Shown in pieces: positions 2,009 through 50,671 of a stretch of 50,721 nucleotides of DNA. The stretch is taken from assembly GCA_946647665.1 (NCBI GenBank), contig CAMPCW010000002.1:1-50721 (forward strand), read 5' to 3'. Made by a program: the position numbers and the translations under genes. This DNA is from an uncultured Bacillales bacterium. Its GTDB lineage: Bacteria > Bacillota_I > Bacilli_A > RFN20 > CAG-826. Position 1 is the first letter of the stretch. Each line of letters begins with the position of its first letter. The notes beneath the pieces were generated by a model. That model was not told where the DNA came from, did not search any database, and saw only the letters and a list, made by a program, of their open reading frames with translations.

Positions 2009-3040
2009 ATGAATGTCTGGTTAGCAATTGCACTTATTTTAGCGGTAGTAACGTTCTATTTATTAGCGATAGAAATTTTTTCTGTTGCTTTTAAGCTTAC
2101 TGGACTTTCCACTAAAAAAATTAAATTTCAAGTTGCTTCTTTATTCACTAGTACCGGTTTTACTACAAATGAGTCTGAATTAATTGTTGGTGATGATCGT
2201 AGAAGAAGAATTGCCACAATCTGTATGTATACAGGACATATTTTCTCTGTGGCTTTCATGGGATTGATAATTAATGTCTTCTTTACTTTAGTAAATATGA
2301 AGGAATTTGATTTCACAATTCAAACTTATACTGAATGGTACTTCATTATTCTTTATATTACTTCTGGCTTATTCTTAATAATGCTTATCTTAAAGATTCC
2401 TCCTGTAAATAAGCACTTTCAAAAGTTTTTAGAGGCTGTCGCTATTAATTCTTCCAAGAAAACAAGGAACACTAATTATATTTCTGTTATTGATTTACAA
2501 GGTAAACATGCAATTGCAGAAGTTATTTTAAATCATATCCCTCCTTTTGCAGTAGATACTCCACTTAGCAAAATGGAATTGACTAAAAATTATTCTATTA
2601 ACGTTCTCTCTATTAAAAGAGGCAAAAGGATCGTTGATGTTACAAAAGACACGATGTTTAGAAAAGGCGACATTTTAATTGTTTTTGGTCTTATTAATGA
2701 CATTAAGCAAGCATTCATCAATTCTGTATCAGGAGACGTTATTAAAGAAGTGGAAAGATATAACGAGATTAACTTGGTTAATAACTATGGCACAAACGCC
2801 TTAGTGGAAGTCTTTGTTGATGAAGTGCCTCAAGAACTAGAAAATGTTAAAATACAAGATGCACATCTTAAAGATCGATATAACATTACGGTGGGCATTA
2901 TTAAAAGAAATGATTCTTACGTGTCTGCAAATAAAGACACGGTCATCTTAAAAGGCGATTTGTTGACTTTGTTTGGACCTTATAAAAATATAAAGCTGCT
3001 GTTTAAAAACGACGACAAAGAAAAAGATAAAGAAGAATAA
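2009..3040 (+). CDS. Membrane protein with two C-terminal TrkA-C (RCK_C) domains
   Basis: N-terminal TM helices with a TSTGFTT pore-loop-like motif; two repeats of the ..V..GS.L.GK.L.D....I.V..I.R pattern (ISVIDLQGKHAI.., ALVEVFVDEVPQEL..). Confidence 0.6.
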   Translation: MNVWLAIALILAVVTFYLLAIEIFSVAFKLTGLSTKKIKFQVASLFTSTGFTTNESELIVGDDRRRRIATICMYTGHIFSVAFMGLIINVFFTLVNMKEFDFTIQTYTEWYFIILYITSGLFLIMLILKIPPVNKHFQKFLEAVAINSSKKTRNTNYISVIDLQGKHAIAEVILNHIPPFAVDTPLSKMELTKNYSINVLSIKRGKRIVDVTKDTMFRKGDILIVFGLINDIKQAFINSVSGDVIKEVERYNEINLVNNYGTNALVEVFVDEVPQELENVKIQDAHLKDRYNITVGIIKRNDSYVSANKDTVILKGDLLTLFGPYKNIKLLFKNDDKEKDKEE

Positions 3041-3042
3041 AT

Positions 3043-3090
3043 AAATATGCACAAAAAGTATCGAACTTATGTACATATTTTTTTGTTTTT
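3043..3090 (+). terminator. Putative rho-independent terminator
   Basis: AAATATGCAC (3043-3052) pairs with GTACATATTT (3071-3080) with one mismatch, followed by TTTTGTTTTT; the loop is long (18 nt). Confidence 0.45.
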
Positions 3091-3120
3091 ATTTAAATAA
3101 AGTTGTATAGTATTTGTCTT

Positions 3121-3786
3121 ATGATAAGGGCATTACCAAAATACACAAATAAACAAGAAATATGGAACACAATTACACACTTACTTGGAGTAGTGTTTTC
3201 TTTTATTGTTTTAGGAATTTTTATAGCAGTGCAAATAAAGAAAAATTTGAGCTTTTATTGCATGTATCCTTTCTACATTTATTTTTTATTTATGCTTATG
3301 GTTTTTTCGAATTCTGCCTTATACCATTCAAGCCCTCAAAATAGCAAAATACGCTCTCTTTGTCGCGTTATTGATCATTGTGACATCTATTTATTCGTTG
3401 CTGGAACCTATACTCCAATCTGTTTAAGAGCAATATCTGACTACAACATTTCAACAGCCTTAATTATCATTCAATGGTCGTTAGCAATTATTGGATTTTT
3501 AATTACAATTTTAGGATTAGGAAATAAGAAATGTGATTTGATTGGCTATATCATCTATATCATTCAAGGCTGGGCAGTTATCTTCTTCTATCCGTTTAAA
3601 CAAGTATTAGATTTTAATGTTTTCTTATTTATTTTATTAGGTGGTGTAATATACACAATAGGGGCTATATCGTATGCAATCGGAAAGAAAAATAAATGGT
3701 TCCATACTTATTTCCATGTTTTCATTTTAACGGCTGCAATCATACAATTTATTGGTATTTATAGTATTCTTTGCCCATTATTTTAA
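3121..3786 (+). CDS. Hemolysin III / PAQR family membrane protein
   Basis: 7-TM protein with motifs NTITHLLG, SALYHS, DHCDIYLFVAGTYTP and HVFILTAA; ATG 3121 is preferred over the TTG 3103 used by the ORF track. Confidence 0.8.
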   Translation: MIRALPKYTNKQEIWNTITHLLGVVFSFIVLGIFIAVQIKKNLSFYCMYPFYIYFLFMLMVFSNSALYHSSPQNSKIRSLCRVIDHCDIYLFVAGTYTPICLRAISDYNISTALIIIQWSLAIIGFLITILGLGNKKCDLIGYIIYIIQGWAVIFFYPFKQVLDFNVFLFILLGGVIYTIGAISYAIGKKNKWFHTYFHVFILTAAIIQFIGIYSILCPLF

Positions 3787-46371: not shown

Positions 46372-46662
46372 ATGCGCAAATACGAAATTATGTACATTTT
46401 AAGAGCCGACTTAGAAGAAGCACAACGTAAGGAAGTCATGGAAAAGCTTGCCAAAATTATCACTGACAATGGTGGTAAAGTTGAAGAAACAAGCGAAGCT
46501 ATGGGCTTACGTGAACTTGCTTATCCAATTAAGGAACAATCTAAGGGTTACTATGTTGTACTTAAGGTTTCTATGGATAACAAAGCGATTAATGAATTCA
46601 ATCGTTTAGTCCGTATCAACCCAAGTGTCCTACGTCATCTTATTGTTGTAGAACACAAATAA
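46372..46662 (+). CDS. rpsF: 30S ribosomal protein S6
   Basis: MRKYEIMYILR.. N-terminus; SD AAGGAGG. Confidence 0.97.
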   Translation: MRKYEIMYILRADLEEAQRKEVMEKLAKIITDNGGKVEETSEAMGLRELAYPIKEQSKGYYVVLKVSMDNKAINEFNRLVRINPSVLRHLIVVEHK

Positions 46663-46676
46663 GGAGGATCATGTAA

Positions 46677-47111
46677 ATGATTAATCGTGTCGTTTTAGTG
46701 GGTCGTTTAACTAGAGATCCAGAACTCAGAAAAACCACATCCGGAAACTCTGTCTGTACATTCACAGTCGCTCTAGACAACAGAATGAAAAATCCAGATG
46801 GTTCTAAAGGAACAAGCTTTATTCCTTGTACAGCCTTTACAACCACCGCGGAAACAGTTTCAAAATTTGCCCGTAAGGGATTATTAGTTGGAGTCGAAGG
46901 TCGTCTTAATCAAAGAAGCTTCATTCGTCAAGATGGACAAAAATCAAGTGTTATCGAAGTATTATGTGACTCAGTTCAATTCTTAGAAAAGAGAAATGAA
47001 GAAGTCGCTAATGAAGAAATGGATATTCCACCATTTGATGACGTTGTTCCTGCTGAAGAATCTAAGAATTTAGACAGTATTGAAATTACTGATGACGATC
47101 TCCCATTCTAA
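46677..47111 (+). CDS. ssb: Single-stranded DNA-binding protein
   Basis: [20 protein letters not shown]-fold N-terminus and acidic tail DDDLPF. Confidence 0.97.
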
Positions 47112-47128
47112 GAAAGGAAGATAAAATA

Positions 47129-47356
47129 ATGGCATTTAAGAAAGTTAGACCACACAAGAAGGTCTGTTACTTCAAGAAAAATAACATTACCCACATCGAT
47201 TATAAAGATGTTGAAACATTAAAGATGTTTATTGCTTCTAATGGAAAAATTTCTCCACGTAGAACAACTGGTACATGTGCAAAACATCAAAGAGAATTAG
47301 CTGTCGCAATTAAAAATGCGAGATTTATGGCTCTTCTCCCATATGTTGCTGACTAA
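47129..47356 (+). CDS. rpsR: 30S ribosomal protein S18
   Basis: [41 protein letters not shown]. Confidence 0.97.
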
Positions 47357-47472
47357 TTAAAGTCTGTAGCAGGACAGTCGCGATTTGCCTCAGTTGGCTA
47401 AAAATGACTTTCCTCGCAAAGCATTAGTCGAAGTATATGAAGAAGTCCTAAGTCTAGGGCTAAATCAATGTA

Positions 47473-47503
47473 AATTAAGTCGTCCGTAATGGATGGCTTT
47501 TTT
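47473..47503 (+). terminator. Terminator with conserved AATTAAGTCGTC left arm, copy 1
   Basis: AATTAAGTCGTCC-GTAA-TGGATGGCTT + T-run; the stem needs G-U pairs, so it forms only in the + strand RNA. Confidence 0.6.
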
Positions 47504-47553
47504 GTTGCATTAATAAATACTAAGTATATAATTTTCGTAGGAGATTAATTTAT

Positions 47554-47817
47554 ATGGTGATGAAAAGACATTTGCTTTTAAACAAGATAGCAACAATATC
47601 TTTAATTGTTTTGGCTGCTGCTGGATTTATTGCTGGCTTTGTGTTGGCTTTTTCTTTAAAATCCGTTTATCGTGAAGAGTATCAATACGTAGCTTACTTA
47701 TTATATATCCCAGCGGTTAGTGGAGGTTCGCTTGTTCTTTCTGTCCCAGGGATATTTATTCTTTTGTGGATAAGAAAAGATTATTACGAACTAAACGCTA
47801 AGGTTTCAAAACAATAA
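47554..47817 (+). CDS. Small two-TM membrane protein, unknown function
   Basis: SD TAGGAGA lies upstream; 87 aa; two hydrophobic helices. Confidence 0.5.
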   Translation: MVMKRHLLLNKIATISLIVLAAAGFIAGFVLAFSLKSVYREEYQYVAYLLYIPAVSGGSLVLSVPGIFILLWIRKDYYELNAKVSKQ

Positions 47818-47823
47818 AGCGCA

Positions 47824-47852
47824 AATTAAGTCGTCCATAGTGGCGGCTTTTT
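47824..47852 (+). terminator. Terminator with conserved AATTAAGTCGTC left arm, copy 2
   Basis: AATTAAGTCGTCC-ATAG-TGGCGGCTT + TTTT. Confidence 0.6.
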
Positions 47853-48147
47853 ATATAATTGAATTATATATTGGTTGTAAAATAAACAACTTTAGATGTA
47901 ATAAAATTGACAAAGAAAAGTCAAAAGCCTTCGTTAATCTGGACACAGAAAGCGAGATGATTGCATTGAGAGACTTTCTTAAAGAAGCTTTGGGACTTCT
48001 GCGGATTGCCTTAGCGTGCCTCCTATTAGCTTTGATAGCGTTACAGTTAAAATTAAAAGAGCCATTGACGACTAGTAGCACCTAAGTGTCTACGAGGCTC
48101 CACTCTTATATTTATATTATAGCATGCCTATTAAAAAATGACTACAT

Positions 48148-48345
48148 ATGTCTAAGGAAACCATTGGACCTAAAATTAAACAATTCAGAAAGAAAAGAAA
48201 ACTGAGTCAAGATGATTTAGCGGAATCTTTAGTGGCACATCCGAAAACTAAATTAACAATAAAACAAGGCTCAGCCCATTATTTCCATACCGAAGAGGAA
48301 AAAGAATTTATCAAGGCTTGGATTCTTAATTCTTTGCATCAATAA
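48148..48345 (+). CDS. XRE-family HTH fragment (probably truncated or remodelled regulator)
   Basis: IGPKIKQFRKKRKLSQDDLAESL matches helices 1-2 of Cro/C1-type HTH domains, but the recognition-helix consensus is missing after LAESL. There is no SD. The partial promoter motif TCCACTCTTATAT lies at 48099-48111. Confidence 0.35.
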   Translation: MSKETIGPKIKQFRKKRKLSQDDLAESLVAHPKTKLTIKQGSAHYFHTEEEKEFIKAWILNSLHQ

Positions 48346-48419
48346 GATAATCTTTGGTATCTCCTTTTAAAAAACATTAATAAGTGTTAATTTATAAATA
48401 AGAAGGGATATGTTGATTT

Positions 48420-49091
48420 ATGGCTACATATAACGCAGAAATAACGCAAAAATTTTTAGATGAGTATAAGACTTTTGAGTATATCGAAGAAAATGATCCT
48501 CATCGATTTGAGATGATAAAAAAACAGCATTATGTTGAATTCAATGCCTTAAGACATATCCGCAACTGCTTGACACATACTCCAAAAGTCAATGGCGATT
48601 TTCCTTTTCATGTCGCTGATTATGTTTTGGAAACACTAGAAGAAATAATAAATAAATTAGTGGTAAAAGCCTACGATGTAGGAATTAAGAAAGATAAAAT
48701 TAAAACATTATCTCCTGACACTGATGTATTACATGCAATGCGCTATATGGATCAGCTACATATTACTAATGTCCCAATCTTTGATGAGAAAGGGTGTGTT
48801 AGATATGTTGTTTCTATGCGAACAATATTCTCTATTCTTGCAAATGCAGAATATGATGAAAATAAATCATATACTATTGAAGATTTAAAAGATAAATTTG
48901 ATATCAATAACAGCAAAGATCTATATTACCTTTTCTTAGCAAAAGACACCTTTGCCTTTGATGCTAAACAATATTTTATCGGCTATAACAATGAACACAA
49001 AAGGTGCGCTTTAATATTTATTACTGAACATGGTTTAAGAAATGAACCTGTATTAGGAATTGTATCTCCTGGAGATGTGTTCAACATTTAA
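48420..49091 (+). CDS. HEPN-like (Rx4H) N-terminal domain fused to a CBS pair
   Basis: ALRHIRNCLTH matches the lR..RN...H form of the HEPN Rx4-6H motif. Two CBS-like repeats follow (IKTLSPDTDVLHAMRYMDQLHITNVPIFDEKGCVRYVVSMRTIF and YLFLAKDTFAFDAKQYF....ALIFITEHGLRNEPVLGIVSPGDVF). Confidence 0.55.
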   Translation: MATYNAEITQKFLDEYKTFEYIEENDPHRFEMIKKQHYVEFNALRHIRNCLTHTPKVNGDFPFHVADYVLETLEEIINKLVVKAYDVGIKKDKIKTLSPDTDVLHAMRYMDQLHITNVPIFDEKGCVRYVVSMRTIFSILANAEYDENKSYTIEDLKDKFDINNSKDLYYLFLAKDTFAFDAKQYFIGYNNEHKRCALIFITEHGLRNEPVLGIVSPGDVFNI

Positions 49092-49118
49092 TTCAGTTGT
49101 CCTTACTGACGGCTTATT

Positions 49119-49157
49119 TGTGGCACATCTGTGACAAACTATCTGATAAGATATATT
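49119..49157 (+). promoter_or_regulatory. Conserved upstream block of mini-protein gene 1
   Basis: TGTGGCACATCTGTGACA-N7-TGATAAGATATA parallels 50240-50279 (TGTGACACATTTGTGACA-N7-TGATAACATATA). Confidence 0.5.
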
Positions 49158-49176: not shown

Positions 49177-49461
49177 ATGAAAAAAGAATTATTAAAAGGT
49201 TTAACTAAAGAACAAATTGCAAAAGTTAAGGCCTGTAAAAGTCATGAAGAATTAATGAAACTCGCTAAAAAAGAAGGCGTTGAACTTACTGAAGAGCAAT
49301 TAGCTGTTGTTAGTGGTGGTGGCGCTTGCAGTGTTATTTCAGATATAGGAGACTATATCAATCCAAATGACTGTCCAAGATGTGGTAGCAATAACTTAAA
49401 AGACAAAGGCACCTATTATATCTGCCAAAGCTGTGGCTACAAAATTGAAAACTACGATTAA
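49177..49461 (+). CDS. Mini-protein: Nif11-type double-glycine leader-like N-terminus + C-terminal zinc ribbon
   Basis: MKKELLKGLTKEQIAKVKACKSHEELMKLAKKEGVELTEEQLAVVSGG, then GACSVISDIGDYINPNDCPRCGSNNLKDKGTYYICQSCGYKIENYD; SD AGGGGG. Confidence 0.6.
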   Translation: MKKELLKGLTKEQIAKVKACKSHEELMKLAKKEGVELTEEQLAVVSGGGACSVISDIGDYINPNDCPRCGSNNLKDKGTYYICQSCGYKIENYD

Positions 49462-49537: not shown

Positions 49538-50239
49538 ATGATGCATAAAAATATTAGTAACAATCTAGAAATAGCCCTTGATAAGTTAAATAATTTAGAT
49601 TTTGATTTCCTCATTATTGGTGGGCTTATTTGTAATGCAGTATTAGCTAATCACGCAAGAAGAACATCTGATATCGATCTGATTTGTAATACTGATTTTC
49701 ATAAGTTAGAGGAACTATTAAAAAAAGAATTTGATGTCGTTCGTTTCCTTTATTTTCCTTTAACTAATGAGGCCACAGAAGAATCTTTTTCTTGTTTTGT
49801 AAGAATTAATAACGAGATTATACATATTGAAGGAAGAAGATTTGATATTTTTAATAAGTTTAAAAGAAGTGTTTATCAAATCGGACAATGTACTTTTAAT
49901 GGGGTCAGTGTTGAACTTCAAATTGCCGAGAAAATAATAGCGTTGTTTTCTATTCGAGTTCCATTATATAAACATCTTGTAGATTTGTATTCTTTCTCAA
50001 AATTAAATGATAAATCATTTAACAAAAATGATATCAAAAAGTATTTAAAGATGTTGCTTTCGTATAAAAATAACGTAAAAAAGAAGTTATATTTACCTCT
50101 TATTGATCTCCAACCCCATATTGAAGTAAATAAAGAGTTTGAAGGATCATTGTTACTTCCTTTACAAGCACAATATAACCACAATAAAGAATACATAATT
50201 GAAGAGATTAATAAATGGCTACCTCAATTTATTGAATAA
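49538..50239 (+). CDS. AbiEii/AbiGii-type (DUF1814-like) nucleotidyltransferase
   Basis: FLIIGGLICNAVLANHARRTSDIDLI matches the GG....R.S.DiD NTase block; LQIAEKIIALFSIRVPLYKHLVDLYSF matches the EK..A...R...rDlyDl block. Confidence 0.6.
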   Translation: MMHKNISNNLEIALDKLNNLDFDFLIIGGLICNAVLANHARRTSDIDLICNTDFHKLEELLKKEFDVVRFLYFPLTNEATEESFSCFVRINNEIIHIEGRRFDIFNKFKRSVYQIGQCTFNGVSVELQIAEKIIALFSIRVPLYKHLVDLYSFSKLNDKSFNKNDIKKYLKMLLSYKNNVKKKLYLPLIDLQPHIEVNKEFEGSLLLPLQAQYNHNKEYIIEEINKWLPQFIE

Positions 50240-50299: not shown

Positions 50300-50608
50300 A
50301 TGAAAAAAGAATTATTAAAAGGTTTAACAGAAGAACAAATTAAAAAAGTTAGTGCATGCAAAAATACGGACGAATTGCTCGCTTTAGCCAAAGAAGAAGG
50401 ATTTTCTTTAACTGATGAACAATTAGAAGCAGTTAATGGTGGTGGTTGTTTATCCACTAACGCACCTGACGTTTCAAAAACATGTAAAAAATGTGGTAGA
50501 TTAGTAGAAGGTCGTTATATTGGTCGAAAATCATATTATGGCCTTATCTATGAATTTGCGTGTGAATGTGGGTATACTTGGAAAGGCTCCAAAAACGAAG
50601 ATTTATAA
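50300..50608 (+). CDS. Mini-protein paralogue: Nif11-type GG leader-like N-terminus + CxxC...CxC zinc ribbon
   Basis: MKKELLKGLTEEQIKKVSACKNTDELLALAKEEGFSLTDEQLEAVNGG, then GCLSTNAPDVSKTCKKCGRLVEGRYIGRKSYYGLIYEFACECGYTWKGSKNEDL. The first 29 nt of the CDS are identical to 49177..; SD AAAGGAGA. Confidence 0.6.
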   Translation: MKKELLKGLTEEQIKKVSACKNTDELLALAKEEGFSLTDEQLEAVNGGGCLSTNAPDVSKTCKKCGRLVEGRYIGRKSYYGLIYEFACECGYTWKGSKNEDL

Positions 50609-50642: not shown

Positions 50643-50671
50643 AATTAAGTCGTCTACAAGGGCGACTTTTT
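50643..50671 (+). terminator. Terminator with conserved AATTAAGTCGTC left arm, copy 3
   Basis: AATTAAGTCGTC-TACAAGG-GCGACTT + TTTT. Confidence 0.6.

Follow-up and report, generated by a model that had tools for sequence, protein, structure and literature searches.

In the window analysed here, a stretch of 50,721 nucleotides from an uncultured Bacillales bacterium (assembly GCA_946647665.1, contig CAMPCW010000002.1, positions 1 to 50,721 of the forward strand), the gene at 48420..49091 encodes a protein of 223 amino acids in which a predicted HEPN-type ribonuclease (RNase) domain is followed by a pair of CBS motifs. The evidence leans towards the view that this HEPN-CBS protein is a self-contained sensor-effector, in other words an HEPN RNase gated by the CBS pair to which it is fused. 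The N-terminal motif and its position are established, the C-terminal two thirds of the protein are a confident CBS pair, and membership of the N-terminal domain in the HEPN superfamily is very probable. The protein belongs to a large, stand-alone family for whose nuclease domain there is no curated model.

The open reading frame (ORF) is genuine and under strong purifying selection, the ratio of nonsynonymous to synonymous substitution rates (dN/dS) lying between 0.02 and 0.11 in comparisons with nine orthologues, which argues that the protein is functional. Scans of the protein itself with Pfam, NCBIfam and PADLOC recognized the CBS part only, PADLOC giving no match, and a phmmer search of PDB sequences returned CBS matches only. 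The two-domain layout read from the ORF product in the earlier note is borne out by an AlphaFold2 model of the full-length protein built with nine homologues (predicted local distance difference test, pLDDT, 87), which shows four N-terminal helices (residues 6–25, 27–36, 38–53 and 67–80) and then a beta/alpha region, where Pfam and Foldseek place the CBS pair. Since an Rfam scan of the whole window gave no match, no riboswitch is recognized upstream of the gene.

The catalytic prediction centres on the segment LRHIRNCLTH (residues 44–53; 48549..48578). The pattern RNxxxH occurs once in the 17,313 residues of the window's stop-free stretches of at least 100 amino acids in six frames. In the alignment used for conservation (152 sequences taken from the representatives of clusters built at 50% identity), R48 and H53 are present in 152/152 sequences, N49 in 146/152 and R45 in 127/152. 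The polar residue N49 directly follows R48 (R48-N49-C-L-T-H53), a place that N, D or H takes in the HEPN Rx4-6H motif. Position 20 is acidic in 149/152 sequences; it lies in the first predicted helix, as opposed to helix 2 in the canonical HEPN description. The HEPN superfamily paper (Anantharaman et al., PMC3710099) describes a conserved acidic residue as common in the N-terminal part of HEPN domains, near the active site, and locates the Rx4-6H motif at the C-terminal end of helix 3, the loop to helix 4 following. In an AlphaFold2 model of the N-terminal domain alone (73 sequences; pLDDT 92, predicted template modelling score 0.81; helices 6–25, 27–36, 38–53 and 67–85), RNx3H is likewise found at the C-terminal end of helix 3 (38–53), followed by loop 54–66 and helix 4 (67–85).

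Sequence profiles point to the same superfamily, with all HEPN profile matches of the domain lying below curated thresholds. When the domain profile was compared with PDB sequences, the top matches included HEPN1 of BzCas13b at E 0.043 and the HepT toxin at E 0.15, and in both alignments the motif falls on the catalytic RNxxxH; the HepT matches (PDB 6m6w and 5yep) range from E 0.15 to 0.34 and are sub-threshold. A profile from a second N-terminal alignment added little, giving marginal HepT and Cas13b matches with spectrin and bacterioferritin scoring similarly. Scanned singly, 150 full-length members matched Pfam weakly, and 6 of the 15 non-CBS Pfam families hit by at least two of them (DUF4145, HEPN_Swt1, HepT-like, pEK499_p136, RiboL-PSP-HEPN and Ribonuc_2-5A) are families that we take to be HEPN-type, Ribonuc_2-5A presumably being the KEN-domain family. 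The Pfam family most often weakly matched by these members is DUF6548 (33/150), of which no mention was found in the literature searched and which thus gives no functional lead. In a sister subgroup marked by the signature LRNAIVH, RiboL-PSP-HEPN is matched by 30 of 34 sequences (best E 5.6e-5, under the curated cutoff), Cthe_2314-like HEPN by 7, HepT-like by 6 and Apea-like HEPN by 3. Fragments of such proteins carry the label YutE/DUF86 in one database source and Apea-like HEPN in another.

Several observations weigh against the HEPN assignment. Foldseek with the full-length model found CBS pairs only, and the N-terminal 86 amino acids were therefore remodelled alone; with this isolated model, the best PDB match has an E value of 1.9, with no HEPN structure among the 12 matches listed, and the best match in BFVD has an E value of 1.5, nothing being significant. 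The fold search thus returned neither an HEPN structure nor any other significant match, and because it found no HEPN structure the three-dimensional HEPN fold of the domain is not confirmed; Foldseek is weak on short helical domains, so that this null is a failed test and not a disproof. Each sequence match to HEPN families stays under its curated threshold, and the domain of ~86 amino acids covers no more than the last half to two thirds of HEPN models (positions 87–178 of 191 in RiboL-PSP and 80–131 of 133 in HepT), for which reason it may be a minimal HEPN domain that lacks the canonical helix 1. Finally, an hhalign comparison with the HEPN domain of DS-11, an anti-phage CBS-HEPN protein discussed below, aligned 15 motif columns only (P 0.0016, probability 16%), with the motif falling on R330/H335.

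The lack of a structural match, the sub-threshold profiles and a length below that of typical HEPN domains would also suit a domain that does not cleave RNA, either an inactive HEPN-like one or an unrelated fold, which would serve as a helical dimerisation, ligand-binding or protein-binding module in a CBS-type regulator of some other target. This is judged improbable, since the invariant R and H, the near-invariant N, the exact Rx4H spacing and the acidic residue, kept across more than 150 divergent sequences, form an active-site pattern, and since independent weak matches converge on HEPN with no other fold class recurring. Moreover, HEPN families classed as inactive typically lose residues of the R/N/H motif, according to the superfamily paper (PMC3710099). 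Of the HEPN-like N-terminal domain proposed in the earlier note, the motif is thus upheld by its invariance, its canonical position and the convergence of weak profiles, and the fold found no structural counterpart.

The sensor half is better defined. The two CBS-like repeats that had been noticed in the C-terminal ~140 amino acids are confirmed by Pfam (Table 1) and by structural alignment to solved CBS pairs, as two tandem motifs with the beta-alpha-beta-beta-alpha pair fold. At E<=0.001, the full-length model had 222 Foldseek matches in the PDB; 50/50 of those listed are CBS-domain structures, most of them aligned over ~142 columns, with 2p9m, 4gqy and 3kpc at E values from 4e-7 (2p9m) to 3e-6 over ~142 columns. 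The matches include CBSX2 with adenosine monophosphate (AMP), MJ0100 with S-adenosylmethionine, AMPK gamma, DarB and AcuB. In the family alignment, P119 and G205 are invariant, and M110, T202 and D219 exceed 90% conservation. CBS motif 2 carries G-h-h-S/T-x-x-D, which we take from established CBS structures to be the ribose contact of adenosine ligands and which is therefore a predicted ligand site here. Its glycine is kept in 134, its T/S in 143 and its aspartate in 138 of the 152 sequences, and CBS motif 1 is without the signature aspartate.

The combination of the two domains is constant across a large family. A word-indexed search yielded eight homologues at 48–97% identity, and an exhaustive profile search of 1.84 billion cluster representatives yielded 1188 proteins at E<=1e-3, 401 of them at E<=1e-10. 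Nearly all of the 150 matches listed have 200–264 amino acids and align end to end, family length being fixed at about 225–245 amino acids. A metagenome scan for the LRNAIVH signature confirmed 557 of 600 pattern matches as relatives; in the 80 LRNAIVH loci kept, 73 of 75 complete ORFs have 220–279 amino acids and end in a CBS pair. These full-length ORFs in assembled contigs indicate that most of the short database proteins mentioned above are incomplete, and that HEPN followed by CBS is a practically constant architecture. Cluster names looked up for ten family members came back empty. Family members come from marine, soil, bioreactor, gut and rumen samples. The scan of a genome collection reached close rumen relatives only, the broad alignments holding no stretch conserved enough; these close relatives are rumen metagenome-assembled genomes (MAGs) labelled Bacilli, Bacillales or Erysipelotrichaceae.

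A mechanism can be proposed on this basis. The minimal HEPN-type domain would act as a metal-independent RNase with R48, N49 and H53 in its predicted active site; if other HEPN nucleases are a guide, two subunits of a homodimer would together complete this site. The ligand of the CBS pair (Bateman module) would be an adenine-containing nucleotide, bound at the canonical motif 2 site (G213, S216 and D219), and its binding would switch the RNase on or off through altered packing of the two HEPN domains. When the ligand signals infection, energy stress or alarmone stress, the enzyme would probably cut cellular RNA (mRNA, tRNA or rRNA), with growth arrest as the likely outcome. A protein that carries its own regulation would require neither an antitoxin nor a partner gene, which fits the lack of a conserved neighbour (see below); conversely, the lack of a conserved partner suggests control that is intramolecular or exerted by a small molecule.

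This type of arrangement has precedents, so that the statement in the earlier note that it was not known to be characterised is out of date. HEPN and CBS fusions were predicted in 2013 to be nucleotide-regulated RNases controlling RNA stability, in the superfamily survey (Anantharaman et al., PMC3710099), with alr3009 and Pelobacter gi 118580987 as examples and CBS occurring with or without HD. The prediction is the same as the one made here, namely that nucleotide sensing by CBS regulates an HEPN RNase. In that survey, these fusions, some with HD, are listed under 'other fusions' beside Swt1-like and SAV2148-like entries. More recently, DS-11 (WP_000257686.1, 365 amino acids), a one-protein CBS-HEPN anti-phage system of E. 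coli predicted by DefensePredictor, was validated in 2025/26, and its defence is lost in the HEPN mutants R330A and H335A and in the CBS mutant Y157A (PMC13092281).

The likeness to DS-11 lies in a single gene that joins a CBS pair to an HEPN domain with R-x-RN-x3-H (RIIRNDVMH in DS-11, with R330 and H335), and the loss of defence in both HEPN and CBS mutants of DS-11 supports the same sensor-effector logic. The differences are equally clear. In the 365 amino acids of DS-11, the CBS pair (134–241) comes after an N-terminal extension and before HEPN (287–362), whereas HEPN precedes CBS in the 223 amino acids of the window protein. The HEPN domain of DS-11 matches the SAV2148-like HEPN model, alongside which Swt1-like fusions are listed in the 2013 survey (PMC3710099), whereas relatives of the window protein lean to RiboL-PSP and HepT. 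DS-11 homologues bear proteobacterial source names, whereas the close relatives of the window protein are rumen Bacilli. Compared with hhalign, the two family profiles share CBS motif 1 (49 columns, probability 93%). Judged by its sequence, the window protein resembles DS-11 in outline and is not a member of the DS-11 family, from which it differs in architecture and with which it shares no full-length homology; it is a reversed-order, compact, sequence-distinct variant of the CBS-HEPN type. Another E. coli CBS protein, WP_001532511.1 (263 amino acids, a length near that of the family), is listed solely as a novel defence prediction of DefensePredictor in Table S10 of PMC13092281. A blastn search with one metagenomic family member, seeking an E. 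coli member, found nothing.

Three other HEPN systems invite comparison. With HepT/DUF86, the window protein shares RNxxxH and a helix-3/helix-4 hairpin that aligns with HepT residues 80–131. HepT, a small HEPN RNase that works as a dimer, is neutralised by an adjacent MNT nucleotidyltransferase; by contrast, no partner is conserved here, and the fused CBS pair takes the regulatory role. CARF-HEPN proteins (Csm6/Csx1) likewise use a fused sensor of nucleotide messengers to gate an HEPN RNase, but their CARF sensor is Rossmann-like, responds to cyclic oligoadenylates and depends on Cas10 as signal generator. In place of a CARF sensor in a type III CRISPR context, the present family has a CBS pair and no recurring partner gene in 49 locus groups. 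RiboL-PSP-HEPN (PF18735) is the top Pfam match of the sister subgroup, with the whole N-terminal domain placed on model positions 87–178, but no score exceeds about 24 bits, the cutoff being 28.4, there is no endoribonuclease L-PSP fusion and model positions 1–86 are uncovered.

Table 1. Features of the HEPN-CBS gene, its product and its surroundings in the window
Feature	Position	Strand	Basis or remark
HEPN-CBS gene	48420..49091	+	223 amino acids plus stop codon; homologues covering the full length at 48–97% identity
N-terminal four-helix domain, HEPN-like, predicted RNase	48420..48677	+	residues 1–86; AlphaFold2 domain model
E20, conserved acidic residue, first helix	48477..48479	+	E in 135 sequences and D in another 14, of 152 aligned
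R45-x2-R48-N49-x3-H53, Rx4H HEPN-type predicted catalytic motif	48552..48578	+	end of helix 3; family conservation
CBS motif 1, about residues 89–146	48684..48857	+	Pfam CBS at residues 92–141, E 5.5e-9
CBS motif 2, about residues 150–223	48867..49088	+	Foldseek alignments of ~142 columns covering both motifs
G213-I-V-S216-P-G-D219, G-h-h-S/T-x-x-D ribose-binding signature of CBS motif 2, predicted ligand site	49056..49076	+	family conservation
Conserved 5′ leader of the gene cassette	48362..48419	+	includes purine-rich ribosome-binding site GAAGGG at 48402-48407
Weak terminator-like hairpin	49095..49114	+	directly 3′ of the HEPN-CBS stop codon; consensus scan
AbiEii-like nucleotidyltransferase (NTase)	49538..50239	+	Pfam 26 bits against cutoff 22.5; PADLOC AbiEii; GG...DID motif
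Small Nif11-like-leader proteins, paralogous, 94 and 102 amino acids	49177..49461 and 50300..50608	+	flank the NTase gene
65-residue XRE-type helix-turn-helix (HTH) ORF, deletion remnant	48148..48345	+	halves match both ends of an intact 286-residue HTH_3 protein of L011
Three near-identical terminator-like hairpins, AAGTCGTC...GRYGRCTT then T run	47477..47499, 47828..47849, 50647..50668	+	

The genomic surroundings bear on partnership and on role. The HEPN-CBS gene follows rpsF-ssb-rpsR in the window and in five relatives (L007, L010, L012, L014 and L016), and the intervening and downstream genes vary. Neighbours of distant members include an amidohydrolase, Big_2 surface proteins, thrS, genes of fatty-acid synthesis and ATP-binding cassette (ABC) transporters; one distant member adjoins an HNH gene and a type I restriction-modification system. 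When neighbouring ORFs were clustered in 100 loci, forming 49 groups (loci merged where the family proteins are at least 70% identical), no neighbour was conserved: the most frequent, a generic ABC transporter, occurs in 7 groups at variable positions, and the next in 3. The HEPN-CBS gene is therefore a stand-alone unit.

The same count bears on the nucleotidyltransferase (NTase) that the earlier note placed next door and proposed as maker or consumer of the ligand. An NTase gene does lie 447 bp downstream on the same strand, but it is two genes away, a peptide gene (49177..49461) intervening. That it makes or consumes the ligand, or acts as an MNT-type antitoxin as in the HEPN-MNT toxin-antitoxin pairs that exist, is highly improbable. 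The NTase belongs to AbiEii by Pfam and PADLOC and not to the MNT family; the peptide gene and terminator-like hairpins separate it from the HEPN-CBS gene; the NTase gene with its two flanking small proteins is found in L011 and L012 only, that is in 2 of the 11 loci from close relatives in which the HEPN-CBS gene is present in full; and it is never a recurrent neighbour in the 49 groups. The adjacent, co-conserved MNT-type NTase that marks HEPN-MNT systems is thus replaced here by an AbiEii-like one of sporadic occurrence, and both the coupling of the two genes and the HEPN-MNT reading were rejected, as the NTase and HEPN-CBS genes do not co-occur.

Further genes of this variable region were observed alongside. 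AbiEii is a toxin-type family; no AbiEi antitoxin is recognisable for the NTase of the window, which sits between two leader-peptide genes. The two small proteins combine a Nif11-like leader (matches slightly below Pfam and NCBIfam cutoffs), a GG(G) motif and a C-terminal CxxC...CxxC zinc ribbon, and one of them weakly matches the PADLOC model HEC-08. One such peptide gene is present in L013, L014 and L017, and neither NTase nor peptide gene in L007, L008, L009, L010, L015 and L016. In L012 and L013, two ABC exporter genes come after the leader-peptide genes (confirmed by Pfam in the case of L012), and the region looks like a locus for bacteriocin or RiPP-like precursors (RiPP, ribosomally synthesized and post-translationally modified peptide). 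Other variable genes of the locus are a Fic/DOC-HTH gene, a gene for a 286-residue XRE protein and ABC exporters. In L011, the HTH_3 gene is intact (2326..3186, 286 residues) and immediately precedes the HEPN-CBS gene. The Fic/DOC protein (323 residues with a C-terminal HTH; L010 6772..7743, L016 8796..9767 and L011 957..1928) is not encoded in the window; its gene lies upstream of HEPN-CBS in some relatives and downstream in others, as another member of the mobile hotspot.

The divergence of the HEPN-CBS gene does not track that of the adjacent rpsF-ssb-rpsR, and two relatives show opposite patterns. Between L016 and the window, rpsF and ssb have synonymous divergences (dS) of 1.09 and 1.25 with about 60% protein identity (59–79% across the rpsF-ssb-rpsR proteins; 46372..49091 compared), as against a dS of 0.39 and 98% identity for HEPN-CBS. 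Between L014 and the window, rpsF (dS 0.09) and rpsR (dS 0.04) are both 100% identical in protein sequence, as against a dS of 0.50 and 92% identity for HEPN-CBS. Nucleotide similarity begins 25–58 bp before the ATG in every related locus, regardless of the sequence further upstream, and in most loci the similarity blocks end at 49092-49121, within about 30 bp of the stop codon; the block extends into the downstream peptide gene where this is shared (L012, L013, L014 and L017). From this mosaic divergence and these blocks bounded by gene edges it follows that the HEPN-CBS gene behaves as a cassette swapped between related lineages at a variable hotspot downstream of rpsR. The AAGTCGTC...GRYGRCTT hairpins are confined to the last 3.3 kb of the window, and copies bracket the HEPN-CBS cassette in L010, L012, L013, L016 and L017; they may be shared terminators or recombination points of the variable region, similar to repetitive extragenic palindromic (REP) elements. 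In L017 (3100..3733; rumen MAG RUG11432), the HEPN-CBS gene is split by a frameshift around residues 142–155, as a pseudogene or through an assembly error.

As to its physiological role, the protein could be a single-gene anti-phage (abortive infection) system like DS-11, in which an infection-linked adenine derivative would bind the CBS pair and release the HEPN RNase. The DS-11 precedent speaks for this, as do the other occupants of the variable region in this clade (Fic/DOC, AbiEii-like NTase, XRE and bacteriocin-like genes), the uncoupling of gene divergence from rpsF-ssb-rpsR (rps-gene dS above 1 against 0.39 for the HEPN-CBS gene in L016, reversed in L014), similarity blocks of the kind expected of an exchanged cassette, and the one distant member with HNH and type I restriction-modification genes beside it. 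Against it, most of the neighbourhoods read gene by gene consist of housekeeping genes (for example those for fatty-acid synthesis, thrS, an amidohydrolase or ABC transporters), the protein has no PADLOC match, and it shares no sequence homology with DS-11 beyond generic similarity in CBS motif 1. Moreover, phages and plasmids hardly ever carry family members: with two members as tblastn queries, 50,697 phage records yielded no match and 72,556 plasmids yielded one, to a Chlorohelix plasmid, and pattern scans of 2.9 million viral contigs gave one locus. A role in phage defence is held as a possibility that is less likely than not.

The same distribution suits a housekeeping regulator unrelated to phages, that is an RNase gated by energy charge or an alarmone (ATP/ADP/AMP, diadenosine tetraphosphate (Ap4A), c-di-AMP or (p)ppGpp), which would tune RNA turnover or translation in starvation. 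CBS pairs in CBS-PPase, IMPDH and DarB sense metabolites of this type; strong purifying selection, the very broad range of the family from marine to rumen samples with an invariant architecture, the mostly core metabolic neighbours and the near-absence from mobile elements all agree with such a role. The mosaic divergence relative to the flanking ribosomal genes and the variable hotspot occupied in this clade count against it, as does the frameshift in L017, which suggests a dispensable gene, an assembly error being also possible. This role too is entertained tentatively; defence and metabolite-controlled RNA turnover carry similar weight, and the evidence does not separate them. With comparable reserve, we suggest that the family (at least 400 clusters at 50% identity) might be an RNase switch without antitoxin, separate from DS-11 in its evolutionary origin, that reads an adenine nucleotide or alarmone (the ATP/AMP ratio, Ap4A or c-di-AMP), serving mainly as a stress or dormancy brake on RNA, phage defence not being its dedicated role.

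If the prediction of a CBS-gated HEPN RNase holds, these proteins of about 225 amino acids, which have no partner gene and take one small molecule as their input, would be among the smallest self-regulated HEPN nucleases, and thousands of entries labelled 'CBS domain-containing protein' would gain a predicted catalytic function. A parallel study of DS-11, in which the order of the domains is opposite and the HEPN lineage differs, would tell whether HEPN RNases came under CBS control more than once and by what means a Bateman module governs a dimeric active site. Knowing the ligand would reveal which metabolite serves these bacteria as an alarm for infection or stress. Should the family, with its hundreds of diverged clusters, indeed act as a stress brake, it would represent a widespread and previously unrecognised route from metabolite sensing to RNA decay.

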